Under the pieces are notes generated by a model. It saw nothing but the letters and a program-made list of their open reading frames with translations, did no database searches and was not told the DNA's origin. A DNA stretch of 64,000 nt from Nannocystis pusilla (GTDB lineage: Bacteria; Myxococcota_A; Polyangia; Nannocystales; Nannocystaceae), in contig NZ_JAIRAU010000047.1 of NCBI RefSeq assembly GCF_020073745.1, forward strand, positions 349,990 through 413,989. The letters run 5' to 3'. The translations under genes and the position numbers were made by a program. Positions 1,915 through 63,835 of the stretch are shown one piece after another. Position 1 is the stretch's first letter. Each line of letters starts with the position of its first letter.

Positions 1915-3279
1915 TCACTCGCCCGGCTCGGGCTCCTCCGCCGCGGCCGTCCCGGCGCGCAGCTGCTGCAGGCGCGCCCACGCGGTCGCCTCCCACCCGC
2001 GCGGCCCCGGGTGGGCGTAGCGCTGGCCGCGGAGCGCCTCGGGCAGGTAGCTCTCGTTGCCCGGGACCACCCCGCCCGCGAAGTCGTGCGGGTACTTGTA
2101 GCCGACCCCGTACTGGGCCTCGCGCATCAGCGGCGTCACGGCGTTGCGGACCGCCAGCGGCACCTCGAGGCTCCCCGCGCGCAGCACGTCCTTGCGCGCG
2201 TTCGCGTAGGCCGTCAGCGCGGTGTTGCTCTTCGGCGCCAGGGCCAGGAACAGGGCGGCCTGCGTCAGCGGCAGCACGGCCTCGGGCATGCCGATCTGGT
2301 GGGCGGCCTGCGCGGCGGCCACGGCCACCTGCAGCGCCTGCGGTTCGGCGTTGCCGACGTCTTCGGCGGCGAAGATCACGATCCGCCGGGCCACGAAGTC
2401 GACGTCCTCGCCCGCCTCGAGCATGCGCGCCAGCCAGTACACCGCGGCGTCGGCGTCGCTGGCCCGCATGCTCTTGATGAAGGCCGAGACGACGTTGTAG
2501 TGCTCCTCGCCGGCCTTGTCGTAGCGCAGGGAACGGCCGCCGACGGCCTGCTGCGCGACCTCGCGGGTCAGCCGCGTCTCGCCCTCGGGCACCAGGTCGA
2601 CCGCCAGCTCGAGCGCCCCGAGCGCCCGCCGGGCGTCGCCCTGCGCGGTGTGGGCGATCGCCGCCAGCAGCCCGTCCTCGGCCTCGAGCTTGCGCGCGCC
2701 CAGGCCGCGCTCCTCGTCGGTGAGCGCGCGGCGCAGCAGCGCCACCAGGTCGCGGACCTCGATCGGCCGCAGCTGCAGCACCCGCACCCGGCTCAGCAGC
2801 GCCGCGTTGACCTCGAAGCTCGGGTTCTCCGTGGTCGCCCCGACCAGCGCGCACGCCCCCGCCTCGAGGTGCGGCAGGAGAATGTCCTGCTGCGCCTTGT
2901 TGAAGCGGTGGATCTCGTCGACGAACAGCAGCGTCCCGCGACCCTCGTGCGACCTCCGCCGGCGCGCGGCCTCGACCACCTCGCGCAGCTCGCGGGCCCC
3001 CGCCGAGGTGGCCGACAGCACGCAGAACGCGCTCTTGGTGTGCTCGGCCAACAGCCGCGCCAGCGTCGTCTTGCCCGTGCCCGGCGGCCCCCACAAGATC
3101 AGGCTCGGCACCCGCCCGGTGTCGGCGATCCGCCGCAGGATCTTCCCCGGCCCGAGCAGGTGCGTCTGCCCGACCACCTCGTCGAGGCGGCGCGGCCGCA
3201 TGCGCTCGGCCAGCGGCACCAGCGAGGGGTCGCGCTGCCAGGCGCGCTCGAAGAGGTCGTCGCTCGCGTGGGACTGCAC
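1915..3279 (-). CDS. rarA: replication-associated recombination protein A (AAA+ ATPase RarA/MgsA)
   Basis: Conserved PLAERMRP…VGQ.HLLG, Walker A LWGPPGTGKTT, Walker B LFVDEIHRFNKAQQD, and C-terminal MgsA helical domain (VARR…AEDVGNA). The ORF runs to 3516, but the N-terminal 70-80 residues are low-complexity. A GTG near 3279 (VQSHASDDLFERAW…) gives a canonical length, so the start is approximate. Confidence 0.85.
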   Translation of the reverse strand: MQSHASDDLFERAWQRDPSLVPLAERMRPRRLDEVVGQTHLLGPGKILRRIADTGRVPSLILWGPPGTGKTTLARLLAEHTKSAFCVLSATSAGARELREVVEAARRRRSHEGRGTLLFVDEIHRFNKAQQDILLPHLEAGACALVGATTENPSFEVNAALLSRVRVLQLRPIEVRDLVALLRRALTDEERGLGARKLEAEDGLLAAIAHTAQGDARRALGALELAVDLVPEGETRLTREVAQQAVGGRSLRYDKAGEEHYNVVSAFIKSMRASDADAAVYWLARMLEAGEDVDFVARRIVIFAAEDVGNAEPQALQVAVAAAQAAHQIGMPEAVLPLTQAALFLALAPKSNTALTAYANARKDVLRAGSLEVPLAVRNAVTPLMREAQYGVGYKYPHDFAGGVVPGNESYLPEALRGQRYAHPGPRGWEATAWARLQQLRAGTAAAEEPEPGE

Positions 3280-4703: not shown

Positions 4704-5732
4704 TCAATCGACCCCGCAGTAGCGCAGCGCGCAGCTCGGTGGGGTCGGCAGACGGTACATGACGAACGGCCCGCAGTTCTGCACGGCGATCGGGGCCTTG
4801 AAGTGACAGGTCTCGCCTTCCCAGTGGAAGCAGACCTCGCGGGCGACCACCCCGTCGGCCTCCGAGGGCTCCTGTCCGTTGAGCCAGCCGGGCGCGTGGG
4901 TCCCGCACGAGAACATCGGCGGCGCGGTGGTCGGCATGCGCGAGCCCGCCGAGCCGACGAAGCGCGACCACTTGCCCTCCGGCGGCAGAGCGAGGTCGCA
5001 CTCGACCTCCTCGATCTGCGACGCCACGTTGCGGCCCGGCTGCGGCAGCGCCACCGCCTGACTGCACTCGCCGGGCAGGTCCTCGGTCAGGCAGGCGTTG
5101 CAGCCGTCGCCCGCGGTCTGGTTGCCGTCGTCGCACAGCTCGCCCTCGGCCGCCTGCAGCACGCTGTCGCCGCAGCGGGGCGCGAGCGCCGAGCAGCCGG
5201 GCGCGCAGCCCTCGTAGCTGTTGTCGTTGATCTTGTCGTCGCACACCTCGGCGCCGGCGCGCACGAACCCGTCGCCGCAGAACGCCTGCTTGCACGTCGA
5301 CGGGCAGTCGTCGGTGTCGCTCGAGTTGCCGTCGTCGCACTCCTCGCCGTCCTCGACCACCCCGTTGCCGCAGTCGCTCGGCGGCGAGGTCGTCACGGTG
5401 ATGGTCGTCACCGTGAAGGTCTCGGTCGGGAAGGTCGTGAAGGTCGGGTCCGTGAAAGTCGGGTCCGTGATGGTGACGGTCGGCTCGATCGTGTCGGTCG
5501 GCTCGATCGTCGTCGGTGGGTCGATCGTCGTCGACGGATCGATCGTCGTCGGCGGCAGCGTGTCGGTGACCGTCGTCGGCAGCGTGTCGGTGACCGTGTC
5601 GGTAAGCGTATCGGTGATGGAGGTGGAGAGCGTGTCCGTGGTGTCGATCTTGATCGCGAAGCAGCCCGCGGCGAGGTGCGCAAAAACAATCACCCACGTC
5701 TCCAACCGCCATCGTCTACAAGCGAGTAACAT
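4704..5732 (-). CDS. lipoprotein with Myxococcus cysteine-rich repeats
   Basis: Lipobox LAAGC after a hydrophobic leader. Thr/Asp-rich linker (TDTLTDTVTDTL…). Three repeats of the C..CGDG…EECDDGN…GDGC.aC type. Cys-rich C-terminal domain. Confidence 0.8.
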   Translation of the reverse strand: MLLACRRWRLETWVIVFAHLAAGCFAIKIDTTDTLSTSITDTLTDTVTDTLPTTVTDTLPPTTIDPSTTIDPPTTIEPTDTIEPTVTITDPTFTDPTFTTFPTETFTVTTITVTTSPPSDCGNGVVEDGEECDDGNSSDTDDCPSTCKQAFCGDGFVRAGAEVCDDKINDNSYEGCAPGCSALAPRCGDSVLQAAEGELCDDGNQTAGDGCNACLTEDLPGECSQAVALPQPGRNVASQIEEVECDLALPPEGKWSRFVGSAGSRMPTTAPPMFSCGTHAPGWLNGQEPSEADGVVAREVCFHWEGETCHFKAPIAVQNCGPFVMYRLPTPPSCALRYCGVD

Positions 5733-9429: not shown

Positions 9430-9495
9430 GTGTACTTTTGAACATGCTCGAAGGAGCATGCCCTCGTGGGCATGCTCCTTTGAACATGCCCCCGC
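9430..9495. repeat. cluster of CATG-centred palindromes (GAACATGC / GGAGCATGCCC) between convergent genes
   Basis: TTTGAACATGC direct repeat x2. Hairpins CATGCTC-GAAG-GAGCATG and GGAGCATGCCC-TCGT-GGGCATGCTCC (11-bp arms). Locally lower GC. Between the DUF1552 stop and the glmM stop. Confidence 0.55.
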
Positions 9496-18497: not shown

Positions 18498-21119
18498 TCA
18501 GAAGCTGTTGCCGACGTTGAACTCGAACACCACCGGCTCGTCGCCGTAATAGAACTCGGTCGGAGGCAGACGGTCGAGCGGGAAGCCCCACTCGAACCGC
18601 AGCGGACCGATCGGCGACTGCCAGCGGAAGCCGAAGCCGATCGAGCGGCGCAGCGACTTGAGGAAGCCGGGCGCGCCGGGGCGCAGCAGCGTGCACGGGT
18701 CGCTCTTCGGCTGCTCGACCGGGTTCGCCTCGACGCAGTACAGCGGCTCGGTGTTGTAGGCGTTGCCGATGTCCATGAAGACCACGCCCTTGATGTTGGC
18801 GGGCGGGACCATCATGAACTCGAGCTCGAGGTTGAGCGCGGTGAGCAGGTTGCCGCCGATCGTGTACGGGATCAGCGTGGCCGTCGGGTCGGAGCTGCCG
18901 AGCACCTTGATCGCCGGGCCGAGGCTGCGCAGGCGGTAGCCGCGGATACCGCCGTCGCCGAAGATACCGCCGGGGAAGTAGCGCTCGAACACCGGCACGC
19001 CCTTGTCCTGCGGGCTGTGGATGAAGCCGACCTGCAGGCGGGTCTTGAACACCAGCCAGGCGCGGAACGCCTGCTTGCTGCGGATGATCGGGAAGTAGAA
19101 GCGGAAGTTCGCGTCGTAGCGGTTGAAGCGGTTCTGCGAGCCCCAGTACTTGTTGGCGAATTCGGCGCGGATCTCGTGCCGCATGCCCTCGGTCGGGAAC
19201 AGGTAGTTGTCGGTCGTGTCGTAGCGGAGGCTGGCCGTGATCGCCGAGGTGATGCCGTTGTTGAACAGGTTCGAGATCAGCGCCGAGCCGCTGTAGAGCG
19301 TCGAGTAGGCGCCGCCGCCGAACAGGCCGGCGCCGCCGATGCCGCCGACGCCGCCGAACGAGCCGAAGTTGCCGAAGCCGACCTTGATGTACTCGAACGA
19401 GTAGCCGGCGAAGAGGATCAGGTTGGGCACGCGCGGGATCGGGTAACCCCACGACAGGCGCACGCCGGTGCTCTCGCGCGAGAACCCGGGGAACACGTTG
19501 CGCGAGTTGAAGATGTTGAACGAGAAGTTCCAGCGCGAGTCGAGGAAGTAGCGCGTGATGTAGGCCAGGTTGAACAGGCGCCGCAGGCTCGACATCTGGG
19601 CCACGAGGGTCACCGTGGTGCCGCGGCCGAGGAAGTTGTCGTACTGGATCTGCGCCTGCAGCACGAAGTTCTCGATCGTGCTGAAGCCGGCGCCGACCTG
19701 GAACGTGCCGGTCAGGCGCTCGGTCACCTCGACGTTGAGGACGATCTTGTCCTCGGCGCTGCCCTTGCTGGTCGAGATCGTGACCTGGTTGAAGTAGCCG
19801 AGCCGCATCGCGTTGAACTCGGACTGCTCCTTGGCGCTCTCGGAGTAGAGGTCGCCCTCGCGCAGCGCCATCTCGCGGCGGATGACCTTGTCGGCGGTCT
19901 TGTCGTTGCCGCTGATGTTGATGCGCTCGATGTAGACGAGCGGGCCCTTGCCGACCTCGAGCGTCATGTAGAGCTTGAGGTTCTCGCGGTCCTGGCGGCC
20001 GTCGGGGATGACGTTGACGTAGGCGTGGCCGGCGTCCTTGTAGCGGCGCTCGATGTCCTGGATGATCGTCTGGATCTTCCCCATCGAGGCGACGTCGCCC
20101 TCCTTGATGACGGGGGTGATCGAGTCGGCCAGGATGTTCTCGTTGTAGAGCGCCTTCTCGCCGCGCCCGAGGACCTCCTTCGCGCGGATCTTGCCGACGC
20201 GGTACTGCGGCCCCTCGTCGACCGGGACGGTGACGTAGACGAACCGACGGTCGGGGCTGAGGCTCAGCTCCGGGTCCTTGACGTTGGCGTCGAGGTAGCC
20301 GTTGTCGGTGTAGAACTGCTTCAACATCTGGAAGTCGCCGGCGAACGCCTCCTTGTTGAAGACGCCGCCGGCCTTCTTCGTGACGACGCTGAGGTAGCCG
20401 CCGACGCGCGTGATCATGTGCTTGCGCAGCTCGTCGTCGGTGAACGCTTGGTTGCCGATGAAGGTGATCTTGCGGACGATCGTCTCGGCCGCCTCGCTGA
20501 TCACGATCTGGATGTCGACCTTGCCGATCTCGTCCTCGACCGGGCGCAGGCCGTAGGTGACCTCGGCCAGGAAGAAGCCCTTCTCGACGTAGAGCTGCTT
20601 GACCTTCTCGACGTTGGCCCGCACCGCGCCGACGTCGAGGATGGCGTTGAGCTTGAGGTCGAGCTGCTCGTTGATGTCGTCGAGCTTGATCTTGCTGTTG
20701 CCCTCGACGACGATCTTCCGGATCGTCGGCCGCTCCTTGACGATGTAGGTCAGGACGACGCCCGAGGGGGTCAGCTCGCCCTCGATGCGGATGTCGTCGA
20801 ACTTGCCGAGGCCCCACAGCCGCTTGATGTCGGTCGCCAGGTTGCGCGGGTTGACGACCGCGTCGATGTGGCTCTCGAGCTCGAGCATCATCGCCTCGCT
20901 CTCGACGCGACGGTTGCCCTCGAAGCGGATGTCGACGATCGGCTGACCGTACAGCTCCTGCGGCACGCCGGCGGCGGCGGAGCGGAAGAACATGTCCATG
21001 CCGATCTCGGCCATGCTCGGGCGGGCGCCGGCGACCTGTCCGAACAGACAGACCAGCGCGCAGGCCAGCGACGCCAGGGCGCGCACCAGCGGCGAGACGT
21101 CGCGGCGGGCGAGGGGCAC
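18498..21119 (-). CDS. bamA: outer membrane protein assembly factor BamA
   Basis: Five POTRA-like repeats followed by a C-terminal Omp85 beta-barrel ending …EFNVGNSF. Signal peptide VRALASLACALVCLFGQVAGA. The ORF runs to 21269 and overlaps lolD, so the start was set at an in-frame GTG near 21119. Confidence 0.9.
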   Translation of the reverse strand: MPLARRDVSPLVRALASLACALVCLFGQVAGARPSMAEIGMDMFFRSAAAGVPQELYGQPIVDIRFEGNRRVESEAMMLELESHIDAVVNPRNLATDIKRLWGLGKFDDIRIEGELTPSGVVLTYIVKERPTIRKIVVEGNSKIKLDDINEQLDLKLNAILDVGAVRANVEKVKQLYVEKGFFLAEVTYGLRPVEDEIGKVDIQIVISEAAETIVRKITFIGNQAFTDDELRKHMITRVGGYLSVVTKKAGGVFNKEAFAGDFQMLKQFYTDNGYLDANVKDPELSLSPDRRFVYVTVPVDEGPQYRVGKIRAKEVLGRGEKALYNENILADSITPVIKEGDVASMGKIQTIIQDIERRYKDAGHAYVNVIPDGRQDRENLKLYMTLEVGKGPLVYIERINISGNDKTADKVIRREMALREGDLYSESAKEQSEFNAMRLGYFNQVTISTSKGSAEDKIVLNVEVTERLTGTFQVGAGFSTIENFVLQAQIQYDNFLGRGTTVTLVAQMSSLRRLFNLAYITRYFLDSRWNFSFNIFNSRNVFPGFSRESTGVRLSWGYPIPRVPNLILFAGYSFEYIKVGFGNFGSFGGVGGIGGAGLFGGGAYSTLYSGSALISNLFNNGITSAITASLRYDTTDNYLFPTEGMRHEIRAEFANKYWGSQNRFNRYDANFRFYFPIIRSKQAFRAWLVFKTRLQVGFIHSPQDKGVPVFERYFPGGIFGDGGIRGYRLRSLGPAIKVLGSSDPTATLIPYTIGGNLLTALNLELEFMMVPPANIKGVVFMDIGNAYNTEPLYCVEANPVEQPKSDPCTLLRPGAPGFLKSLRRSIGFGFRWQSPIGPLRFEWGFPLDRLPPTEFYYGDEPVVFEFNVGNSF

Positions 21120-21163
21120 GGGGAGGACGACTCCGCGGGCGGAGCTGTGAGGACGACGCTCCG

Positions 21164-21967
<804 letters not shown>

Positions 21968-45744: not shown

Positions 45745-45835
45745 TCCAGGGCATTCTCGAAAGGACATGCCGCGAAGAGCATGTCCTCTTGAACATCTCC
45801 CTCTGGACATGTCCTGAAAGACAGCGTCCCCGCGT
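45745..45835. repeat. CATG-centred palindrome cluster (GGACATGTCC family) between convergent genes
   Basis: AGGACATGC-CGCGAAGA-GCATGTCCT hairpin, then CTTGAACAT, then the perfect palindrome GGACATGTCC, then GAAAGACAGC. Confidence 0.55.
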
Positions 45836-47317: not shown

Positions 47318-48172
47318 TCAGACCGCCAGCTGGGTGCGGCTCACGGCCACTTCTTCGCGCCCGTGGGGCAGCTCGAGGCCCTCGCCGGAGAACCGCGCGA
47401 TCGCCACCGTCACGTTGTCGGGTCCGCCGGCGGCACAGGCGGCCTCGGTCAGGGCCCGACAGCAGCGCAGTGGGTCTTCGTAGCGCAGCATCAGCCCGAG
47501 GATCTGCTCGTCGGTGACCGGCCCGGTGAGGCCGTCGCTGCACAGCAGCAGCACGTCGCCGGCGCGCAGCTGGACCACGTCGAACTCGGGCCCGACCCGC
47601 GGCTGCACGCCGAGCGCCTGCAGCAGCACGTTGCGGTGCTCGTAGTCGCGGGCCTGCTCGGGGCGCAGGCGGCCGGCCGCGATCAGCTGCCCGACCACGC
47701 TGTGATCGGTCGTGACCTGCGTCAGCGAGCGGCCACGGCGGATGTACGCCCGCGAGTCGCCGACGTGTCCGATCATCAATTCTGGCCCGAAGGCCAGGGC
47801 CGCCGTCAGCGTCGTGCCCATCCCGTGGCGGGCCGGATCTTCGACCGCGGCCGCGCGGATCTTGTCGTTCACCGCCGTGATCGCCTCGTGCATCACGTCC
47901 TGAGCCATGGCCGTGCTGGCGAACGGCGCCTTGGCGTGGACCACCGCCGACAGCACGTCGACCGCGATCCCCGAGGCCACGTCGCCGGCCGCCGCGCCGC
48001 CCATCCCGTCGCACACCGCGATCAGCGTCCCGCGCGACGTCAGCTGTTGCACGCGCTGGTGCGGCAGCAGCCCGCGCTCCCCCGTCTGGAGGTTTTGGAC
48101 CACGAAGTGGTCCTCGTTGCGCTTGCGGACGCAACCGACCTCGGTCCTCGCGAACACCTCGAGCTGCGCCAC
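47318..48172 (-). CDS. PP2C-family Ser/Thr protein phosphatase
   Basis: VRKRNEDHF, CDGMGG, GDSRAYI, LLCSDGLTG, and GGPDNVTVAI motifs. Confidence 0.85.
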   Translation of the reverse strand: MAQLEVFARTEVGCVRKRNEDHFVVQNLQTGERGLLPHQRVQQLTSRGTLIAVCDGMGGAAAGDVASGIAVDVLSAVVHAKAPFASTAMAQDVMHEAITAVNDKIRAAAVEDPARHGMGTTLTAALAFGPELMIGHVGDSRAYIRRGRSLTQVTTDHSVVGQLIAAGRLRPEQARDYEHRNVLLQALGVQPRVGPEFDVVQLRAGDVLLLCSDGLTGPVTDEQILGLMLRYEDPLRCCRALTEAACAAGGPDNVTVAIARFSGEGLELPHGREEVAVSRTQLAV

Positions 48173-48173
48173 C

Positions 48174-49526
48174 TCAGTGCATCCTCACGCGGAAGATCTG
48201 GTCCCCGACCCGGAACATGTCGCCCGGTTGAAGGATGACATCCCCGCGGATCCGGAGGTAGGTCCCGTTGGCCGAGCGGAGGTCGGTGAGGAGGACGGTC
48301 ATCGCGTCTCCGCGCAGCTCCATCGCCAGCTGCGCGTGTTGCCAGCTGACGAAGGGGTCGGTCGGGAAGATGATGTCGCCGAGTTCGCGGCCGAACACGA
48401 TCTGCGGCGCGCGCAGGCAGTGGACCTCGGCCTCGGCCCCGCCGACCCCGATCAGCGTCAGGCGGCCCCACGCCGGCTGCATCGGCGTGCCGAACAGGCG
48501 CGTCGCCTCGGCGTCGAGCTCCTGCTCGCGTCCGCCCGACGGGAGGTTCTCCAGCCGCAGCAAATGGTGACCCACGAGGAAGAGATCGCCCGGAAACACC
48601 GGTTCCGGCCGCGAGATCCGGACATAGACCCCGTTGCGCGATCCCAGATCGCCCAGGCGGACCCCGCCGCCGGGCGCCGGCTCGAGGCGGGCGTGGGCCG
48701 GGCTGAGGAACTCGTCGCTCGGGAACATCAGGTCGCCCTGCTTGCGGCCCACCACCAGCGTCCCGCGCAGCGCCACCGACTCGCCCTCCGAGCCGTCGCG
48801 CTTCACCAGCACGATCCGCAGCGGCGCCGCCCCGGCCGAGCGACGCGACGACTCGACGGCCAGCCTCGCCATCGGCGCCGACCACGACGGCCCGCCCGGC
48901 GAGCCCGTCACCGACACCTGCGCCTGCTCCGACGGCAGCGCCTGACCCATCCGCGCCGTGTCGCCGGGCCCTGGCCCCTCGCGCGGCACCGGCACCCCGT
49001 CGGCCGGCGGTCGCAGCCCGACCACCCGCGCCACCCCCCACGAGCCCTGGCCCGGCTCGCTCGCCTCCGGGCCGTTGCCGGCGTTGCCGCCGCTGTCGGC
49101 GGCGACGAGCGGGGGCTCGGCCTCGCTGGCGTTCGGGACAGGTGCGGTCGGCGGCGCCGGGGTCGCCGGCGAGACGATCCCGGCCTCGGGCGCCGGGGTC
49201 GGTTCACCCGCGGAAGAACGCGGCGCCGGATCGGGTACGGGGGGTCGTGCCGGCTCCACCTCGCCCGTGCCCTCGAGCAGGCGTCGCGGGATCAACTTCA
49301 TGCTCTGGGTGCTCGGGCGCGGCAGCCGGGAGTGCACGCGCAGGCCGCAGATCTGGCAGAACTCGAAGCCGTCGCCGAGCGGCTGCCCGCAGCGCGCGCA
49401 CTTCGGGAGCGCGCTCACTGGCGCCGGTGGCGACAGGCGATAACCGCAGATCTCGCACGCAGCAGCCTCTGGGGCGTGTTCGGTGCCACAGGCGGGACAG
49501 GGGATCCACTCCGTCATCGGCCTCAT
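48174..49526 (-). CDS. double zinc-ribbon plus two-FHA-domain protein
   Basis: N-terminal CPACG…CEICG…CARCG…CQICG. Two FHA cores (…VVGRKQGDLMFPSDEFLSPAHARLE…SRNGVYV and …IVFGRELGDIIFPTDPFVSWQHAQL…SANGTYL). Stop abuts the PP2C start. Confidence 0.8.
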   Translation of the reverse strand: MRPMTEWIPCPACGTEHAPEAAACEICGYRLSPPAPVSALPKCARCGQPLGDGFEFCQICGLRVHSRLPRPSTQSMKLIPRRLLEGTGEVEPARPPVPDPAPRSSAGEPTPAPEAGIVSPATPAPPTAPVPNASEAEPPLVAADSGGNAGNGPEASEPGQGSWGVARVVGLRPPADGVPVPREGPGPGDTARMGQALPSEQAQVSVTGSPGGPSWSAPMARLAVESSRRSAGAAPLRIVLVKRDGSEGESVALRGTLVVGRKQGDLMFPSDEFLSPAHARLEPAPGGGVRLGDLGSRNGVYVRISRPEPVFPGDLFLVGHHLLRLENLPSGGREQELDAEATRLFGTPMQPAWGRLTLIGVGGAEAEVHCLRAPQIVFGRELGDIIFPTDPFVSWQHAQLAMELRGDAMTVLLTDLRSANGTYLRIRGDVILQPGDMFRVGDQIFRVRMH

Positions 49527-51199: not shown

Positions 51200-53325
51200 C
51201 CCGCGCGCGCTCGTGGCTCCGCCGGGTCGGCCGCGCCCTCGGCCTCGGACTCGCCCTGTCGCTCGCGCTCCCGGCCGCGCCCGCGGCCGCGTGGGACGCC
51301 CGCGCCACCCACCTCGGCATGGTCGACCGCGCCCTGCTGGAGAGCGCGCTGCACCTGCGCTGGATGGCCCAGAGCGAGCTCCAGCGCGGCCTCTTCACCG
51401 CCCTGCGCGTCGACCCCAGGCGGCTCAGCGCGCCCGAGCGGCGCATGCTCACCGCCGCCCTGCAGCACGGCGGCCTCCAGGCGCTCGGCGGCCCCGGTTC
51501 CTGCCCCGGCCTCGGCGCCCCGATCGAGACCCAGAAGTACTGCGTCGAGGGCGACGTGTGGGAGCTGCCGGCGCTGCAGTGGCTGCAGGTCGGCGTGCTC
51601 GCCGAATTGGTCCCCTCGGCCCGCGCCGTCCACCACTTCGTCGACCGCGACGACCCGCTCGCGCCCGCCTTCGCCGATCCGCAGCAGCGCCCCGGCCTGG
51701 TGCGCCTGCGCCAGGTCCGCCACAACGGCGGCTCGGCCGCGGCCCTGGCCACACAGACAGGTTTCTCGGGACAGGGCCCTTCGGTCATCTCGTTCCTGCG
51801 CGACGACACCGACCCGCTGGCCCCGCCGAACATGTGGCGCCACCTCGAGCTCGCCTCGACCTTGCCCGAGGCGGACGCGCGGGCGCACCACCTCGCGCTG
51901 GCGCTGGTCGGCCTCGGCGCGCTGCTGCACGTCGTCCAGGACCTCGCCGTCCCCGCCCACGCGCGCGGCGACGTCAGCGGTTTCTTCAGCCCGCTGTCGC
52001 CGAGCCCCGGCGATCGCGGCCTGCCGTTTGCGGAACTGGCGCGTCTGGCGTTCGGTCGCAGCGCCCTGCCCGGCCGCCCCGCCCAGGACGAGGTCGCCCG
52101 CGCCCGCGGGATCCCCGTCGCCGGCTCGCTCGCCGAGCACCTGTTCGGCGGCGCCCCGGCCAGCAAGGATCCTGGCGCATTGGTCATGCCCGAAGGGACA
52201 GGTTACGAGGGCCTGGCGGTGTTCACCGCGCGCCGGTTCCTGTCCGAGGCCAGCGTCCCCGCGCCGCGCCACCTCGACGACGACCTCACGCCCGAGGCCG
52301 CCGCCGCCGAGCTGCTGCAGGCCAGCCGCCTCGACCCGGTCGAGCTCCAGGGCGCCCGCATGCACCCGTGGCCGGCCGCGCGCGGCTACATCCAGAGCGG
52401 CAGCGGCCGGCCGCTGGCCGCCTTCGACACCGACGACGACGGCCGCGTCCGCCCGTACATCGACGAGGCCGTCTACCGCGAGCAGTTCGTCCACCTGGCG
52501 CCCCGCGCGGTCGAGGTCACGCGCTCGCTGCTCGACTGGCTGTGGCCGACCTGGCCCGAGCTCACCTTCGACGCCACCGCCGGCAACCTCGACTTCGTGG
52601 TCCCGCCCGGCCTCGTCGACGCCGTCGTCCTCGTGCTGCGTCAGGACTCCGCCGGTGCGCGCACGATCGTCCGCAAGGTCACCCTCCGCCCCGGCGAGCG
52701 CAACCGCGTCGCCGGGATCCCCACCGGCCTCGGCGAGGGCGAGCGCGCCGTCGTCGTGCTCCGCGCCCGCCGACCCACCGGCGAGCCGCTCCTGCTCGAG
52801 CACGTGCTCGGCAGCGAGAGCAAGGTCTTCCCCGTCGTCCCCGCGCCCTACGTCGCGCCCGAGCCCGAGCTGGCCGAGCCCGAGCCCGAGCCCGAGCTCC
52901 AGCCAGAGCCCGAGCCGGAGCCCGAGCCGGAGCCCGAGCTGGCGCCGTCGACCAGTCCCAAGGGACAGCCCGCCAGGCCCCAGCAAGGCCAGCCCGTCGA
53001 GCCCGTCACAAGTCCCAAGGGACAGCCCGCCGCCAAGGGCGACGCGGCGTCCACCAGTCCCAAGGGACAGCAAGCCGCCAAGCCCCAGCAGGGCCAGCCC
53101 CCGGCCGGCACCACTCCCACGACCAGTCCCAAGGGACAGCCAGCCGCCAAGCCCCAGCAGGGCCAGCCCACGACCAGTCCCAAGGGACAGCCCGGCGATG
53201 CCACGCCCGCCCCTGGTCCCGACGGACAGCCCGCCGCCAAGCCCCAGCAGGGCCAGCCCCCTGCCGGCACGAACCCCGTCAGCAGTCCCAAGGGACCGCC
53301 CCCGAGCGGCAAGAACCGGGGCTGA
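51196..53325 (+). CDS. secreted protein, possible zinc-dependent phospholipase C / S1-P1 nuclease superfamily, with PE-repeat and SPKGQ-repeat tail
   Basis: GTG overlaps the upstream TGA (GTGA). Signal peptide ALGLGLALSLALPAAPAAA. The mature N-terminus WDARATHLGMVDRALL matches the W1…(S/T)HL..V.RA zinc-ligand start of that superfamily, and later His clusters (HHFVDRDD, HHLALALVG…HVVQD) fit it. Tail has (PE)n plus TSPKGQPAAKPQQGQP x5. The upstream part of the 1280-aa annotated ORF is an Arg-rich artefact. Confidence 0.5.
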   Translation: MTRARSWLRRVGRALGLGLALSLALPAAPAAAWDARATHLGMVDRALLESALHLRWMAQSELQRGLFTALRVDPRRLSAPERRMLTAALQHGGLQALGGPGSCPGLGAPIETQKYCVEGDVWELPALQWLQVGVLAELVPSARAVHHFVDRDDPLAPAFADPQQRPGLVRLRQVRHNGGSAAALATQTGFSGQGPSVISFLRDDTDPLAPPNMWRHLELASTLPEADARAHHLALALVGLGALLHVVQDLAVPAHARGDVSGFFSPLSPSPGDRGLPFAELARLAFGRSALPGRPAQDEVARARGIPVAGSLAEHLFGGAPASKDPGALVMPEGTGYEGLAVFTARRFLSEASVPAPRHLDDDLTPEAAAAELLQASRLDPVELQGARMHPWPAARGYIQSGSGRPLAAFDTDDDGRVRPYIDEAVYREQFVHLAPRAVEVTRSLLDWLWPTWPELTFDATAGNLDFVVPPGLVDAVVLVLRQDSAGARTIVRKVTLRPGERNRVAGIPTGLGEGERAVVVLRARRPTGEPLLLEHVLGSESKVFPVVPAPYVAPEPELAEPEPEPELQPEPEPEPEPEPELAPSTSPKGQPARPQQGQPVEPVTSPKGQPAAKGDAASTSPKGQQAAKPQQGQPPAGTTPTTSPKGQPAAKPQQGQPTTSPKGQPGDATPAPGPDGQPAAKPQQGQPPAGTNPVSSPKGPPPSGKNRG

Positions 53326-53578
53326 GCGGCGTCGTTCGCTCGTCCCGACGCCTCCGACCGCACGCCGGAGCTGAACGCCGACGCCCTCGCCGAGGCGACC
53401 TGCCCCCGAAGACAGCCTGTCCTCCTCGCCTCCTTGCTCTCGGACGCGCCGGCGGCTCGCCCTCCATATCTTCCGCCCCGCGCGACGCCCGGCCGACCTC
53501 GCGCTGGTGACAGCCGCCACCCCGCGCGGACCGTCCACATCAGCCCGCCCGCGGTCCGCGTCAGGCGTCCAGGCGGCT

Positions 53579-54901
53579 GTGCTACACCTCCACGCCGTGT
53601 CGACCGAGCGCGATGACGACGGCCTGATGTTGCCGCCCCTGGACGAGCGTCGCACCCTGCTCGACCAGCTCGTCGCGCTCGTCAAGGCGCGTGGTCCGGC
53701 GCCGCTGCTCGTCGCGCCGCTGCTCGAGCCCAGCCCGCGTTTCTTCCCCGATCGCTGGCAGGGCGGCGACGGCAGCCTGCGCCGGCTCGTGCGGCGCCTG
53801 CTCGGTTATGCCGGCCTCGGTCAGCTGCGCGTCGAGGTCGCCATCTACGACGCCGACCCGGCGCGACGCGGCGAGGTCCTCGGCAAGCCCAGCTCCACGC
53901 GCGGCCAGGACCTCGTCGTCTGGCTCGCCGGCATCGAGCGCGACCTCGTCAAGATCGGCGCCGAGGGTTCGGCCATGGTCGACCCGCACACCATCGTCGC
54001 CGCCGCCGCCCGCGTCGTCGCCCACGTCTACCGCCGGCACTTCGGCCTCGCCACCGGCGACGCCTTCGACCCGCGCATCGACCTCACCGGCGTCTACCTC
54101 GGCTTCGGTGTCCTCACGGCCGACGCCGCCCTGCGCTACACCGTCCGCACCGCCGCCGGCCCGATGCAGACCCGGCGCACCCCCGCGCGGCTCGGCGTCC
54201 TCTCGCCGCAGTCGCTGTGCTTTCTCCTGGCCGCGCAGCTGCACGCGCGCGCCCTCCCGCGGGCCGAGCGGCAGCGGATCGGCAAGCTCCTGCAGGCCAA
54301 CCAGGCCGCCTTCCTGCGCCACGCCTACGCCGCCCTCGACCGCGCCGAGCCGCCCGTCGCCCAGCAGCTCGGCGTCCCGCCGCAGGAGCAGTGGCCGCCC
54401 GCGCCCGACCTCGCCGCGCTCACCGTCCCGTTCACCGACGACCCCGATGCTGTCCTCGAGGCCAGGCGCGACGAGGACCCGGGCATCGCCGGCGTCAACG
54501 CCGGCAAGCCCGTCTTCCGCGTCGAGCGCAGCATGGCCGCGCGGCTCGGTCGCACCCTCGGCATGGGCGCGCTCATGCTCGGCGGCGTGGTCGCCGGCAT
54601 GAAGGGCGGCCTCCAGCTCGACGCCGGCACGATCCCCATGATCGCGCTCGGCCTCGGCGTCACCGGCCTCGTCCTCGGCCGCTTCCTCCGCGAGTCGCGC
54701 TGCTCCGAGCCGCGCTGCGGCGCCCCGCTGGCCCCCGGCGACCGCGTCTGCCCGCGCTGCCGCGGCGAGGTCGTCGGCGTCATCCGCCACCCGCGCGAGC
54801 GCCTGGCCGCCGAGGAGGCCTGGCGCCGCGCCCACCCCGAGGCCGGCGAGCCCGACCCCTCCGAGTCGACCCCGACCGTCGCCGCGCCACCTGTCTCTTG
54901 A
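53579..54901 (+). CDS. hypothetical protein with C-terminal TM helices and zinc-ribbon
   Basis: Protein-like composition throughout. TM segments (GMGALMLGGVVAGM…IPMIALGLGVTGLVLG) then CSEPRCG…CPRCRG. Start ambiguous (GTG 53579 or ATG about 53627). Confidence 0.5.
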   Translation: MLHLHAVSTERDDDGLMLPPLDERRTLLDQLVALVKARGPAPLLVAPLLEPSPRFFPDRWQGGDGSLRRLVRRLLGYAGLGQLRVEVAIYDADPARRGEVLGKPSSTRGQDLVVWLAGIERDLVKIGAEGSAMVDPHTIVAAAARVVAHVYRRHFGLATGDAFDPRIDLTGVYLGFGVLTADAALRYTVRTAAGPMQTRRTPARLGVLSPQSLCFLLAAQLHARALPRAERQRIGKLLQANQAAFLRHAYAALDRAEPPVAQQLGVPPQEQWPPAPDLAALTVPFTDDPDAVLEARRDEDPGIAGVNAGKPVFRVERSMAARLGRTLGMGALMLGGVVAGMKGGLQLDAGTIPMIALGLGVTGLVLGRFLRESRCSEPRCGAPLAPGDRVCPRCRGEVVGVIRHPRERLAAEEAWRRAHPEAGEPDPSESTPTVAAPPVS

Positions 54902-54906
54902 GACAG
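54891..54906. terminator. perfect palindrome CTGTCTC-TT-GAGACAG between convergent genes
   Basis: Overlaps the stop codon of the 53579-54901 gene and lies 20 nt from the stop of the HNH gene. Same arm sequence as the dispersed TGTCTC repeat family. Confidence 0.45.
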
Positions 54907-54926
54907 ATGAATGCGCAGCACAAGAC

Positions 54927-55748
54927 TCAGTCGACCGCACCGTGAGGTCGCGGCGCCCAGGCAAGCGCCTCCGGCGCCTGCACGAACAACCTGTGGAGCC
55001 CTGGGTGGTTTATCTGTTGGCGTCGGATCTCGTTCCACACCATGGGATGTCCCATCCGGCAGATGTCCTCAACGTCCGCGTCTAGATCGGCAAGCTCGTC
55101 TTCGTCGCGCATACGGATGTATCTCGCCAGCCGGGCAATATAGTTCCTGTGTTCTCGCATCCGAGCTCGCATCAAGCCGGGCCGATTCAGCCGCAGCACC
55201 TCGATCGTCTGTTCAGCTCTCTGTCTTTGTAGTGGGTCCAGTGATCGACGCGGCAAGATGAACCCCGTCGACAGATCCAGCATCAGCACCTCTGCGGGCT
55301 CATCCACCCTCGGATCGAGCAACAGGTCAACCCCCTGCGGTGGCTCGACGATCGGGTCTTTGGGTCCGCGTGCCACGTTGCGAACGACCCCGCCCACTAG
55401 CCGAGGAAAGTTATCGCGCTTGATTCCGTTGCAAGGACCGCACGCGTAAATGTAGTTGCGCCACGCGAACACCTCTTCAGGGAAGAGCGCCTTGGGCCGC
55501 ACGTGTTCGATCTCGTCGGCGCAGGAATCCTCGCAATACGCGCATCGCCGCTCGCCACAGCACATCGCGGCGAGCTGCCCTCTCACAGCGCGGAACACTG
55601 GATTGCCGGTCTTGTTTCGGGCCGAGAATTGCTCTCGCGCCTGCGCCACCCGCTCCTGGTACGTGGGCAACGCTGTAATCGCTTGCTGCCAGGCCGCGAG
55701 CTGGTTCGAGGCTACCTCCGGAAGTTCGAGCGCGACCAGCCGGATCAC
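54927..55748 (-). CDS. HNH-family nuclease (TIGR02646-like), candidate Septu PtuB-like effector
   Basis: CAYCEDSCADEIEHVRPKALFPEEVFAWRNYIYACGPCNGIKRD: Cys pairs flanking an HNH-type His. Region GC is markedly lower than its flanks. Begins 3 nt after the ATPase gene stop. Confidence 0.7.
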   Translation of the reverse strand: MIRLVALELPEVASNQLAAWQQAITALPTYQERVAQAREQFSARNKTGNPVFRAVRGQLAAMCCGERRCAYCEDSCADEIEHVRPKALFPEEVFAWRNYIYACGPCNGIKRDNFPRLVGGVVRNVARGPKDPIVEPPQGVDLLLDPRVDEPAEVLMLDLSTGFILPRRSLDPLQRQRAEQTIEVLRLNRPGLMRARMREHRNYIARLARYIRMRDEDELADLDADVEDICRMGHPMVWNEIRRQQINHPGLHRLFVQAPEALAWAPRPHGAVD

Positions 55749-55751
55749 AGC

Positions 55752-57077
55752 TCAACCTTCCTCTTCAGTCAGATCATCCTGATGTACCGGTAGTGTCCGG
55801 CGCAGTGCGGCACGTTCCTTCTCTTCATCGGCGTCCAGCCCTTCGTCCAGCCGCTTGACGTTGAGCTCGGCGAGGCGCCGCAGCTTCGCCTCGCCTTCTT
55901 CCGAGCGAGTCTCCAAGACCCCGAAACTCTCGGTCTCATAGGCGTCGAGGATGTCGCCATACAGCAGCCGATTCAGCTCGTCGCCGATGACCATGCGGCC
56001 CTCCTCGTCGCTCCCCGGCCGCGGCAGCCTGTACACTGACCCCTTGACCGCCGCCTGGCACACCAGGGGACTGTGTGTCGTCACCAGGAACTGCATGTTC
56101 GGGAACGACTCGACGAACCACTTGCCGACGCGTACCTGCCACGACGGGTGCAGATGGGCATCGATCTCGTCGATCAGCACGACTCCGGGGGCGATGATCT
56201 TCGTCGGGTCATGCGGCGCAAAGATGATGTCCGGGTCGTACGCAATCGAGAGCTGACGGATGAGCTCGAACGTCAGACTGAGGATCGATCGGTAGCCGTC
56301 GCTGAGCTCGCCGACTTCGATCTCATGACCATTGCCGTCCTTGAACGTCACACGCTTCTGGCTAACATCCACCAGTTGAGCCCCGTGGGGCAAGAAACCC
56401 TTCTGATTTACGAAGGCGATGAGGCGTTGCAGTAGACGACCGCTCGGTCCACCATCGCGCTGTCCAGCCCGTTCAGCTTCAAGCTGGGCAAACCGAAGTC
56501 CCTGCATCCACGCCAAACACTCAGACAGGGCGATGTCCTCACCGAAGACCGTCAGGTGGCGAGCTAGCCTTGGGTGCGAATAGTACAGTTTCTCGGCTTC
56601 CTTGTCTCCCCCCCGGAGGCGCCTGAACGGCCCGTACGAGGCCGAGAACCATCCCGAACCGCTCCCCCAAACATTCGCAACCGGCGTGTGCTTCTTGTAC
56701 TTCGTCGTTCCGAACCCATCCAGTTCGACCAAGCCACTCTCCAAACGCTCCAGCGTCAGTACGATCCAAGGGTAGGTCTGGCCTGGGCGCGGACCTCGAC
56801 CAACAAGAGGATCCCATCGCTCGCCGTCATCGCTGTAGATTAGCGTGCAGGTTCCGTCATTCTTACCGGAGCTAAGCCAGTCGCGCCAGTCTTGGCGCAG
56901 AGCAGCAGCGTCCTTTGGTCCGACCAACGCAAGCGCGATGGTCCGAAGCAGCGTGCTCTTTCCTGCACCATTCGGCCCCAGAAACACATGCCACCCCTGA
57001 CGCACTCCGGGCTCAACTCTCCACTTCAGCGCTCCGATGACGCGGATGTTCGAGATCTCGAAGCTGACGAGGTGCAT
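55752..57077 (-). CDS. AAA/ABC-type ATPase (AAA_21-like), candidate Septu PtuA-like
   Basis: Walker [14 protein letters not shown], signature-like LSDGYRS, Walker B VVLIDEIDAHLHP, H-loop VTTHSP, and an acidic coiled-coil C-terminus. No TOPRIM or other fused nuclease domain. Low-GC segment. Confidence 0.75.
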   Translation of the reverse strand: MHLVSFEISNIRVIGALKWRVEPGVRQGWHVFLGPNGAGKSTLLRTIALALVGPKDAAALRQDWRDWLSSGKNDGTCTLIYSDDGERWDPLVGRGPRPGQTYPWIVLTLERLESGLVELDGFGTTKYKKHTPVANVWGSGSGWFSASYGPFRRLRGGDKEAEKLYYSHPRLARHLTVFGEDIALSECLAWMQGLRFAQLEAERAGQRDGGPSGRLLQRLIAFVNQKGFLPHGAQLVDVSQKRVTFKDGNGHEIEVGELSDGYRSILSLTFELIRQLSIAYDPDIIFAPHDPTKIIAPGVVLIDEIDAHLHPSWQVRVGKWFVESFPNMQFLVTTHSPLVCQAAVKGSVYRLPRPGSDEEGRMVIGDELNRLLYGDILDAYETESFGVLETRSEEGEAKLRRLAELNVKRLDEGLDADEEKERAALRRTLPVHQDDLTEEEG

Positions 57078-57112
57078 GATGGCGAGACCCTAGCACGGCG
57101 CTCGCGGCGCCC

Positions 57113-58210
57113 TCAACTTCGCTGGCGCACCACCCACCGCACCACCCGCCGCGCCTCCTCGGGCCTGAGGAACGCCAGGTAGCTGGCCAGCGTCAGCGGC
57201 GTGAACCACTCGACGTACATCATCAGCTGGATGCCGACGTGCATCGCCACGCCGAAGCCGAGGAACAGCCAGCGGAGGTCGGGGATCCGGCGCCAGCGCT
57301 GGCGCAGCCAGTGGGCCGCGACGAACCCGGAGAACGCCACCTCCCACACCAGCACCAGCCACGTGATCGGCCGCAGCACGAACGGCTGCAGCGACGCCAG
57401 CGCGCGCGTCAGGTCGAAGTGGCGGTTGTAGGGGCTGACCAGCGAGAAGTAGATCGCCGTGCCATCGGACTTCCAGGTCGCCCCGTGCTTGGCCAGCCCG
57501 GTCGTCGTGTACAGCACCGCCAGCTGCAGCTGCACGATCCGGCGGCACCACACCGGCACCGGCCCGCCCTTGCCGCGCCAGCGCGCGTCGAGGCTGAGCC
57601 CGCGGCCGCTCGGCATCAGCGCCAGCCACACGATCATCGCCGTGTGCAGCTGGTCGGGCATCGCGTAGAGCAGCGGGTTGCGGCCGACCAGGCTGACCCA
57701 CACCAGCGCGCTCACCAGCGCCGCCGGCCGCGTGAACAGCCCGACCAGCCACAGCACGTGCGCCACCACCCCGGCGGCGAAGATCGCCTGCACCGCCAGC
57801 GGGTCGTCGATCGAGAAGAACAGCGACCAGCGCGACGGGAACGCCTGGCGGGCGAATTCCCCGCTCAGCGGCGCCGCGCTCGAGAAGTACTCCGCCACCG
57901 CCCCGACGTGCGACAGCAGGCTGGCGGTGAACACCGCGACCAGCCCGATCCGCAGCAGCCCCAGCGCCGTCGGGTCCTCCTCCCCGGTCAGCAGCGCGTC
58001 GCGCAGGCGGGCCAGGCGTCCGTGGCTGTCCTTCACGCCCTGTCCGTTCGGACCTGTCGCTTCGACCAGCTCGTGATCATCCGCCGCCCCCGTCGTCCGG
58101 ACCTGTCCGTTCAGACCTGTCGCTTCGACCACGTCACGTTCACCCGCCCCGCGGGCTCGCGCGTCCGCCGGCCGGCTGTCCTCCGCGCCCTGTCCCTCGG
58201 ATCCTGTCAC
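57113..58210 (-). CDS. HTTM-domain (vitamin-K-carboxylase-like) polytopic membrane protein
   Basis: LGLLRIGLVAVFTASLL…, multiple TM helices, and a conserved HTTM core (…VWVSLVGRNPLLYAMPDQLHTAMIVWLALMP…). GTG start abuts the upstream gene stop. The first ~60 codons are encoded by tandem CCTGTC repeat DNA and may be non-coding. Confidence 0.65.
   Translation of the reverse strand: MTGSEGQGAEDSRPADARARGAGERDVVEATGLNGQVRTTGAADDHELVEATGPNGQGVKDSHGRLARLRDALLTGEEDPTALGLLRIGLVAVFTASLLSHVGAVAEYFSSAAPLSGEFARQAFPSRWSLFFSIDDPLAVQAIFAAGVVAHVLWLVGLFTRPAALVSALVWVSLVGRNPLLYAMPDQLHTAMIVWLALMPSGRGLSLDARWRGKGGPVPVWCRRIVQLQLAVLYTTTGLAKHGATWKSDGTAIYFSLVSPYNRHFDLTRALASLQPFVLRPITWLVLVWEVAFSGFVAAHWLRQRWRRIPDLRWLFLGFGVAMHVGIQLMMYVEWFTPLTLASYLAFLRPEEARRVVRWVVRQRS
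58030..58200. repeat. tandem CCTGTCCGTTCRGACCTGTCGCTTCGACC repeats (2 x ~60 bp plus degenerate copies)
   Basis: Seven CCTGTC cores in about 190 bp. Shares the TCGACC and GTCC-TTC-GGAC features of the arrays at 1730-1912 and 4636-4700. Confidence 0.55.
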
Positions 58211-63744: not shown

Positions 63745-63835
63745 TCTCGGGCATGTCTCTGCGGACATGCCCCCTGGGCCATGCGCCATCAGACATGTCC
63801 TTGTAGACATGTCCTTCGACGCCGCGGATTCAACC
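63745..63835. repeat. CATG-centred palindrome cluster immediately after a stop codon
   Basis: GGGCATGTC-TCTGCG-GACATGCCC hairpin with 9-bp arms, then the tandem AGACATGTCCTTG x2. Confidence 0.55.

Follow-up and report, generated by a model that had tools for sequence, protein, structure and literature searches.

What is encoded by the two minus-strand genes that make up the least GC (guanine + cytosine)-rich segment of a 64,000-nucleotide (nt) stretch of Nannocystis pusilla DNA (NCBI RefSeq assembly GCF_020073745.1, contig NZ_JAIRAU010000047.1, positions 349,990 to 413,989 of the forward strand; this whole stretch, numbered from its first letter, is hereafter the window), and how did they come to lie where they do? 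An earlier note, made from the letters of the window alone, had proposed a Septu-type (PtuA/PtuB) module. We are confident that the pair constitutes a standalone (type I) Septu anti-phage system, comprised of a PtuA ATPase and a PtuB HNH nuclease and carried on an acquired cassette of ~2.2 kb with a probable promoter of its own. This identification draws on family membership, conserved motifs, predicted folds, the lack of retron parts, the insertion relative to sister genomes, and purifying selection, with profiles, folds, motifs, and gene order all fitting type I Septu. The genes and the signal between them are as follows:

55752..57077, minus strand: ptuA, encoding an ABC/AAA_21-type ATPase of 441 amino acids (aa), ATG start
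54927..55748, minus strand: ptuB, encoding a TIGR02646-like HNH (H-N-N) nuclease of 273 aa, GTG start
55756..55762, minus strand: Shine-Dalgarno-like AGGAAGG for ptuB, within the ptuA 3' end and 7 nt before the GTG, read from the sequence

The listing of open reading frames (ORFs) contains these as two neighboring co-directional genes of 441 and 273 aa, 3 nt apart, just as the earlier note had described them: ptuA terminates in a TGA (55754-55752), which is followed by the gap (55749-55751) and the GTG of ptuB. The placement of the Shine-Dalgarno-like sequence inside the end of ptuA suggests that translation of ptuB is coupled to that of ptuA. In homologous loci the two genes overlap by 4 nt or lie 3-15 nt apart, and the order ptuA then ptuB on the same strand is kept in all intact ones. 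The low-GC islet for which the note had asked a GC and codon-usage profile is equally real: the segment 54907-57125 (2,219 nt) has a GC of 0.616 vs 0.718 ± 0.026 in 26 other 2.2-kb segments (z=–3.9), making it the lowest-GC stretch of its length across the whole window; a 400-nt profile drops from 0.72-0.78 to 0.58-0.65 over about 54.9-57.1 kb; and the GC at third codon positions (GC3) is 0.73 in ptuA and ptuB vs 0.94-0.99 in the adjacent genes. By both GC and GC3 the composition of ptuAB is foreign. The second-lowest-GC 2.2-kb stretch of the window (18733-20951, GC 0.647) lies within a 923-aa gene (18498..21269, minus strand) with a GC3 of 0.96, and its low GC thus stems from amino-acid composition rather than foreign origin. 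The ptuA product is 100% identical to an NCBI record labeled 'AAA family ATPase [Nannocystis pusilla]', and that of ptuB is 100% identical to one labeled 'hypothetical protein', with UniRef assigning the identical protein to the TIGR02646 family.

In comparisons with the PADLOC profiles, the top matches of the two proteins are PtuA and PtuB, near full length and by a wide margin. The ATPase matches PDLC00269 (E 2.6e-144; residues 1-433 of 441 against profile positions 1-433 of 446) along with more than 20 further PtuA models, and the nuclease matches PDLC00340 (E 1.3e-89; residues 1-264 of 273 against profile positions 1-268 of 268), with dozens of other PtuA and PtuB models ranking below these two. 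Pfam recovers on the ATPase only generic P-loop/ABC-type families, viz., AAA_21 (E 4e-22), AAA_15, and a sub-threshold SMC_N, and on PtuB a sub-threshold HNH_5. An ABC/AAA_21-type ATPase core is also common to GajA of the OLD-family/Gabija systems and AriA of PARIS, and the PADLOC AriA model matches at E 1.2e-24 over residues 211-339 only; however, the TOPRIM fusion of the former and the DUF4435 (AriB) partner of the latter are absent here (PADLOC, Pfam), with the nuclease being a separate HNH protein. The earlier judgment that these families are poorer fits, along with the observation that no nuclease domain is fused to the ATPase (Pfam finds no TOPRIM), therefore stands.

Searches of the PDB sequences matched solely PtuA and PtuB chains, from the Escherichia coli Septu and the retron I-A complexes. 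AlphaFold2 models of the two monomers, computed with alignments of homologues as input, reached a predicted local distance difference test score (pLDDT) of 92.2 and a predicted template modeling score (pTM) of 0.87 for PtuB, and 81.7 and 0.80, respectively, for PtuA. When these were compared against the PDB with Foldseek, the top 50 matches of the PtuA model were all PtuA chains, including those of E. coli Septu (8eea, 8ee4, 8sux), and the top 11 of the PtuB model were all PtuB chains, with nothing else under E=1. The motifs and structural elements that we mapped onto the two proteins are the following:

PtuA G34-T42: Walker A
PtuA L258-R263: signature (LSDGYR)
PtuA V299-D306: Walker B
PtuA T333-P337: H-loop
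PtuA 393-428: C-terminal helices
PtuB C69, C72, C103, C106: CCCC zinc knuckle
PtuB H82, N98, N107: catalytic residues
PtuB 172-263: helical C-terminal domain

All the motifs quoted in the note were found (GPNGAGKST, LSDGYRS, VVLIDEID, and TTHSP in the ATPase; CAYCE, EHVRPK, and CGPCNGIK in the partner), and their key positions are strongly constrained. Across 33 homologues of PtuA, the Walker A residues G34, N36, G39, and K40, the signature residues L258, S259, D260, G261, and R263, the Walker B and D-loop residues D303, E304, D306, and H308, and the H-loop residues T334, H335, and S336 are invariant. Among 32 aligned PtuB homologues, which share 44-68% identity with the query, the HNH residues are likewise invariant, with the full set comprising C69, Y71, C72, E73, E81, H82, P85, N98, C103, C106, N107, and K110, to which H234, W238, and R243 are added by the C-terminal helical domain. 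The invariant residues of the nuclease region make up a ββα-Me H-N-N active site with the CCCC zinc knuckle as its frame.

Some of the lower-ranking profile matches point to a different function, namely that of a modification-dependent (type IV-like) restriction enzyme, whose ATPase and HNH subunits would cut modified incoming DNA directly rather than respond to infection in an abortive manner. The PADLOC mREase_IV model PDLC03660 matches residues 142-418 of PtuA (E 2.8e-49) and PDLC03661 matches PtuB (E 9e-16), and one source labels a homologue (P0185) McrA-like. However, these matches are partial and trail those to PtuA and PtuB by about 95 and 74 orders of magnitude, respectively, and the structural matches are exclusively to PtuA and PtuB; hence, we consider a restriction enzyme of this type very unlikely.

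The question of how the Septu genes came to be at this site can be addressed with the occupied and empty versions of the locus. A search with the HTTM-domain membrane protein encoded upstream of ptuA retrieved nine Nannocystis loci, the closest being that of N. radixulma (91%). In all six of the loci that span the site (L001-L006: N. radixulma, N. sp. RBIL2, N. exedens, N. punicea, N. bainbridge, and N. pusilla Na p29), no ptuAB separates the HTTM gene from the 464-aa gene, its convergent next neighbor. The blastn homology to these empty sites ends at 57125/57126 and resumes at 54906, placing one junction exactly at 54906/54907 and leaving that on the HTTM side ambiguous within 57126-57131. 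The features so delimited are listed here:

54907..57128, no strand assigned: inserted cassette of about 2.22 kb, GC 0.616, delimited by blastn against the empty sites L001-L006
57113..57125, minus strand: 3' end of the HTTM gene (final codons and stop), contributed by the cassette, as seen in translations of occupied and empty sites
54891..54906, no strand assigned: native palindrome CTGTCTC-TT-GAGACAG, CTGTCTCTTGAGACAG, abutting the junction and hairpin-capable

The cassette is thus a horizontally acquired element inserted between the HTTM membrane gene and the convergent 464-aa gene. Consistent with the cassette supplying its end, the HTTM protein terminates in ..RQRS* in the window and in ..R[R/Q/G]RS* at occupied sites, as against ..AR[A/G/T]* at the empty ones. 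No direct repeats or target-site duplication are evident by eye at the junctions, where no formal repeat search was made.

The same presence/absence pattern bears on the proposal that the pair is a housekeeping DNA-repair module, with a RecF/RecN/SMC/Rad50-like ATPase and an accessory HNH nuclease. This is prompted by the under-cut-off Pfam SMC_N match and by NCBIfam matches to Rad50, RecF, RecN, and SMC at E ~1e-3 to 1e-4 over the Walker A region. However, all of these cover the P-loop only and are far under their cut-offs, so that no housekeeping family comes near the top of the profile matches; further, the pair is missing at the site in six congeneric genomes and has a foreign base composition, rather than being conserved in synteny with a normal GC. 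Together, the presence/absence pattern and the profile scores effectively refute a repair module, to which we assign a negligible probability.

The palindrome that the note had placed at the edge of the islet is real and perfect, but it is not a feature of the islet. The sequence CTGTCTCTTGAGACAG is unique in the window as a perfect copy (with one mismatch allowed, the pattern occurs at 2 sites vs 0.02 expected), and the folding energy of its 41-nt context is –16.8 kcal/mol on one strand and –24.9 kcal/mol on the other. It encodes the C-terminus of the convergent 464-aa gene (53507..54901, plus strand) together with its TGA stop (54899-54901), and it is identical in the empty site of N. radixulma (L001), while being degenerate in N. 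exedens and N. pusilla. Its presence in an empty site and its overlap with the stop of the 464-aa gene mean that it marks the junction as the native 3' end of the neighboring gene; by the same token, it was ruled out as an attachment (att) site or a terminal repeat of the islet.

What the cassette replaced is a spacer that in the relatives measures 94-290 nt and contains arrays of GRRCATG units with a 14-nt period and strong hairpins; in the window, a GGGCATG-type array was replaced. Among the fetched loci this repeat is limited to those of Nannocystis, and this restriction, along with its spread over intergenic regions, identifies it as a genus-specific element resembling repetitive extragenic palindromic (REP) sequences. 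Elsewhere in the window, GRRCATG arrays occur at 9440-9491, 45763-45783, and 63749-63814 (9 matches vs 0 expected by chance), and they are also seen in L002-L006 at ~10.9-11.3 kb and in other spacers. They sit in 3' spacers, often between convergent genes, and the segment 9430-9500 folds at –36.3 kcal/mol.

The extent of the insertion is also what decides between a standalone Septu and a retron effector. Type I-A retrons (Retron-Eco7/Ec78 and Eco4/Ec83; PDB 9KJX, 9NNB, 9N69, 9E8Z) possess a homologous ATPase and HNH protein, and the pair could be taken as the effector half of such a retron (Septu type II), held in check by a nearby reverse transcriptase (RT) and multicopy single-stranded DNA (msDNA). 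Indeed, PtuA and PtuB of retrons Ec78 and Ec83 are the best sequence matches among the solved structures, and there are secondary matches from the PADLOC ATPase_I-A and HNH_I-A models and from the NCBIfam models of the retron Ec78 PtuA and PtuB. Nevertheless, the RT, the non-coding RNA (ncRNA), and the msDNA are absent at the Nannocystis locus. Of the 2.22 kb of inserted DNA, the two ORFs take 2.15 kb, and about 70 nt of the cassette is intergenic, leaving no room for an RT or ncRNA. The neighboring genes show neither an RT domain in Pfam nor an RT match in PADLOC. In Rfam, no family was above its gathering threshold within 50-62 kb, and an E-value scan of the same region detected no msr but only a sub-threshold AsdA (E 0.44), with the qualification that such a scan could miss a very divergent ncRNA. 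In addition, the NCBIfam equivalog cut-offs for the retron proteins are not reached, and the Nannocystis PtuA, at 441 aa, is about 110 aa shorter than that of the retrons. The latter is about 550 aa long and binds RT and msDNA via an N-terminal extension, an m-loop, and a helical flap (PMC12819146); the shorter Nannocystis protein is consistent with the lack of these retron-specific elements. The retron alternative is thereby effectively refuted, and we see scarcely any probability in it.

A standalone cassette raises the issue of its expression. The earlier note had held that the promoter must lie inside the HTTM gene or be read through from it. Two candidate elements ahead of ptuA suggest that this is not obligatory:

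57087..57095, minus strand: candidate extended –10 element TGCTAGGGT (TGnTAnnnT), ending 9 nt before the ptuA ATG, identified by cross-cassette conservation
57111..57116, minus strand: –35-like hexamer TTGAGG, 18 nt upstream of the –10 and containing the TGA stop (57115-57113) of the HTTM gene

When the 63 nt upstream of the ATG were aligned for seven cassettes from four contexts, few positions were invariant, and five of these spell TGnTAnnnT. The window shares the TTGAGG hexamer with the closer cassettes (L012, L017, L020, and L023), whereas L018 and L010 do not conserve it. We infer that the cassette probably brings its own promoter in its leader of ~50 nt, and that the ptuA mRNA is probably leaderless or nearly so, which is consistent with the absence of a Shine-Dalgarno sequence. 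When 54.5-58.5 kb was scanned for generic sigma-70 promoters and for terminators, no promoter and only two chance-level terminators were called; as the scan missed the site, the proposal rests on the cross-cassette conservation. Transcription may also occur by read-through from the HTTM gene.

Further copies of the cassette occur both at this site and at others. The metagenome contigs L012/L013 and L020/L021 share with the window the gene order HTTM-ptuA-ptuB-(convergent 464-aa gene), the junction, and the 35-nt distance from the HTTM stop to the ptuA ATG; L022 and L023 share the upstream junction and the 35-nt distance, with the flanking core gene unconfirmed. L017 was considered as a fifth HTTM-site locus and ruled out by translating its upstream 147 nt. 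Compared with the window, the occupied-site relatives are 77-79% identical in PtuA and 62-68% in PtuB, and the flanking proteins of L012 are 84-87% identical. The synonymous divergence (dS) between the window (55752-57077) and L012 (3074-4372) is ~1.15 for ptuA, whereas that of the HTTM gene (57113-58210 vs 2121-3038) is ~0.28, about fourfold lower. The cassette alleles are therefore much older than their flanks. Alleles may have been exchanged via the conserved flanks, the site may have acquired cassettes independently, or compositional amelioration may have inflated dS; this third possibility is plausible given that the GC3 of the cassette ranges over 0.73-0.89 among hosts, as against 0.93-0.98 in the flanks. 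Both genes are under purifying selection, as indicated by ratios of nonsynonymous divergence (dN) to dS of 0.04-0.15 (ptuA) and 0.18-0.24 (ptuB).

Beyond the HTTM site, the two-gene unit, with a partner of 269-273 aa, occurs in unrelated contexts in Corallococcus exiguus, in Sorangium, on a metagenome contig beside a kinase gene, and in L017 beside an Hpt gene; in L018 the cassette lies downstream of ftsH with a decayed ptuB. In the latter metagenome organism (L018 2359-3928; L019 439-1935), the orphan ptuA encodes a 75% identical protein, and an internal deletion in ptuB fuses its first ~26 to its last ~15 codons, such that the nuclease gene is lost and the ATPase gene is intact. The ptuB of L012 (4376-5196) is split over two frames near 4934, by a frameshift or an assembly error, and L013 (1869-2606) has an uninterrupted ptuB following a ptuA identical to that of L012. 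A more distant pair is found on the 20-kb plasmid pM44602 of Methylobacterium sp. 4-46 (L024, 16164-19185), with a ptuA homologue 45% identical to ours and a 268-aa partner, directly downstream of a small 'recombinase family protein' and beside a DNA methyltransferase; this plasmid is a possible vehicle for this Septu clade. The search for phage-borne relatives returned partial matches to the ATPase core only.

The decay of ptuB and the mobility of the unit are also what would be expected of a selfish, toxin/antitoxin (TA)-like addiction module, in which PtuB is the toxin and PtuA its restraint and which, with no net anti-phage role in the host, persists through post-segregational killing or hitch-hiking. 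In keeping with such a module, the deletion of ptuB with retention of ptuA in L018/L019 and the frameshifted ptuB of L012 fit selection against a toxic component, the cassette moves among genomic contexts, freed PtuAB is toxic in E. coli (PMC12640716), and the best Pfam match, AAA_21, is described as a 'putative AbiEii toxin, Type IV TA system'. Against it, purifying selection acts on both genes over a deep divergence, the experimentally tested members of the family are defensive (PMC12819146, PMC13096335), and Septu is enriched in myxobacteria (bioRxiv 10.64898/2026.09.14.751636). On this balance we judge a purely selfish module to be very improbable indeed and retain the anti-phage Septu interpretation.

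Several points weigh against the latter interpretation and should be set against the strength of the profile and fold matches. TIGR02646 scores 51.9 bits on PtuB, 0.25 bit short of its cut-off of 52.15, and the NCBIfam equivalogs for the retron-Ec78 PtuA and PtuB are far under theirs (107.5 vs 500 and 62.1 vs 150, respectively), with the 107.5-bit match to the retron-type PtuA model (NF041760) confined to residues 240-359. The phmmer alignment to the solved PtuA covers the C-terminal ATPase lobe only, and the structural alignments are only 13-25% identical to any solved PtuA or PtuB. The locus lies outside any defence island, its neighbors being housekeeping, membrane, or secreted-protein genes, of which the note had named the latter two kinds. 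Both the substrate (DNA or tRNA) and the trigger vary among the characterized PtuAB systems, such that carrying either over to the present pair would be uncertain.

Among the characterized systems, the closest in organization are E. coli Septu (PDB 8EE4, 8EE7, 8EEA, 8SUX) and Septu Ec-B88, which have the same operon of an ATPase gene followed by one for a TIGR02646-like HNH protein, with no third component. The folds are the same as those of E. coli Septu by Foldseek, yet the identity to the 8eea chains is about 16-19%. Septu Ec-B88 depends for defence on its Walker A and Walker B motifs and on that of H-N-H type (PMC13096335), and the Nannocystis pair retains the equivalent residues intact. 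In the solved complexes, the C-terminal helices of PtuA and the helical C-terminal domain of PtuB form the interface, with the C-terminal extensions of the PtuA dimer clamping the PtuB domain (PMC12819146), and the corresponding elements are present in the Nannocystis models. The differences include the length of PtuB (273 aa vs 234 modeled residues in 8eea_G and ~215 aa in the solved retron-type and 22bv PtuB), the signature motif, where Nannocystis has LSDG-Y-R but E. coli Septu has a Leu and retron Ec78 a Gln at the Y position (PMC12819146), and the host itself, since unlike E. coli Septu the Nannocystis pair resides in a myxobacterium of 72% GC.

Taking PMC12819146, PMC12640716, and PMC13096335 as mechanistic references, we can outline how the system might work. 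E. coli Septu is described as a 6:2 PtuA:PtuB complex whose nuclease is inhibited by ATP binding and which introduces nicks into plasmid DNA in vitro (Li et al., 2024, as summarized in PMC12640716 and PMC12819146). Across different PtuAB systems, both nicking of plasmid or genomic DNA and cleavage of the tRNA-Tyr variable loop have been reported, and standalone Septu is reportedly sensitized by a phage tail fibre (PMC12819146). By analogy to these systems we infer the oligomeric state, ATP control, trigger, substrate, and phage protection of the Nannocystis pair: PtuA would oligomerize into an ATP-loaded platform, and its C-terminal helices (393-428) would clamp the helical C-terminal domain (172-263) of PtuB; the ATP-bound PtuA would keep the PtuB nuclease inactive; and phage infection would lift this inhibition, upon which the H82/N98/N107 active site of PtuB could cut nucleic acid, be it DNA and/or tRNA. 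The likely outcome would be an arrest of phage replication akin to abortive infection.

Given that a DefenseFinder survey covering 3,229 myxobacterial genomes lists Septu as one of the dominant defence systems (bioRxiv 10.64898/2026.09.14.751636), the locus is an ordinary further example of a system known to be common in these bacteria; it changes no current view, and standard tools such as PADLOC and DefenseFinder would detect it. Its direct yield is a correct Septu label for proteins recorded only as 'AAA family ATPase' and 'hypothetical protein'. Nevertheless, it goes modestly beyond routine annotation in offering a base-pair-resolution map of the cassette, its placement in a REP-like spacer, an occupied/empty polymorphism, and alleles older than their flanks, along with a large sequence distance from all characterized PtuAB: the PDLC00269/PDLC00340 clade (PtuB of ~269-273 aa) is at most 25% identical to every characterized Septu. 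As a self-contained 2.2-kb unit with no recombinase of its own, the cassette is a clean natural case of a small mobile defence unit, with two genes and a candidate promoter-bearing leader of about 50 nt set between core genes, for which both occupied and empty alleles are at hand in sister genomes. In practical terms, comparative biochemistry on the question of DNA versus tRNA as the substrate would gain a diverged, high-GC PtuAB, and studies of defence-gene turnover in Nannocystis could use the site as a marked hotspot. That this clade senses another trigger or cuts another substrate than the E. coli systems and, as a separate matter, that there is an undescribed turnover of defence cassettes at REP-like hotspots of myxobacteria, via homologous exchange through the flanks or REP-targeted insertion, is a speculative and on present evidence rather unlikely prospect.

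The surroundings of the cassette were surveyed over ten neighboring genes (45.8-63.7 kb), which encode a PP2C phosphatase, an FHA/zinc-ribbon protein, two unknown proteins, the HTTM membrane protein, a 195-aa protein, an M4-like peptidase, an S13 DD-carboxypeptidase, a DUF2167 protein, and an epimerase; Pfam and PADLOC detected no RT, recombinase, or defence domain in these. The PADLOC model PDC-M21C matches the PP2C phosphatase (E 4.6e-6), but the match is weak and partial; it was dismissed as chance or non-specific, and with it a defence-island context was rejected. Two further features of this region concern the neighbors themselves. The C-terminal part of a large ORF ending at 53325 (~52850-53325, plus strand), whose product lacks a Pfam match, has a low-complexity Pro/Gln/Lys-rich tail with TSPKGQPAAKPQQGQP-like repeats after a PEPE run, coinciding with a strong AT-skew spike of about 0.55. 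Finally, at 47318-49526 (minus strand), the PP2C phosphatase is encoded beside a protein that combines a double zinc ribbon with two FHA-like domains, an arrangement that looks like a Ser/Thr-phosphosignaling pair.

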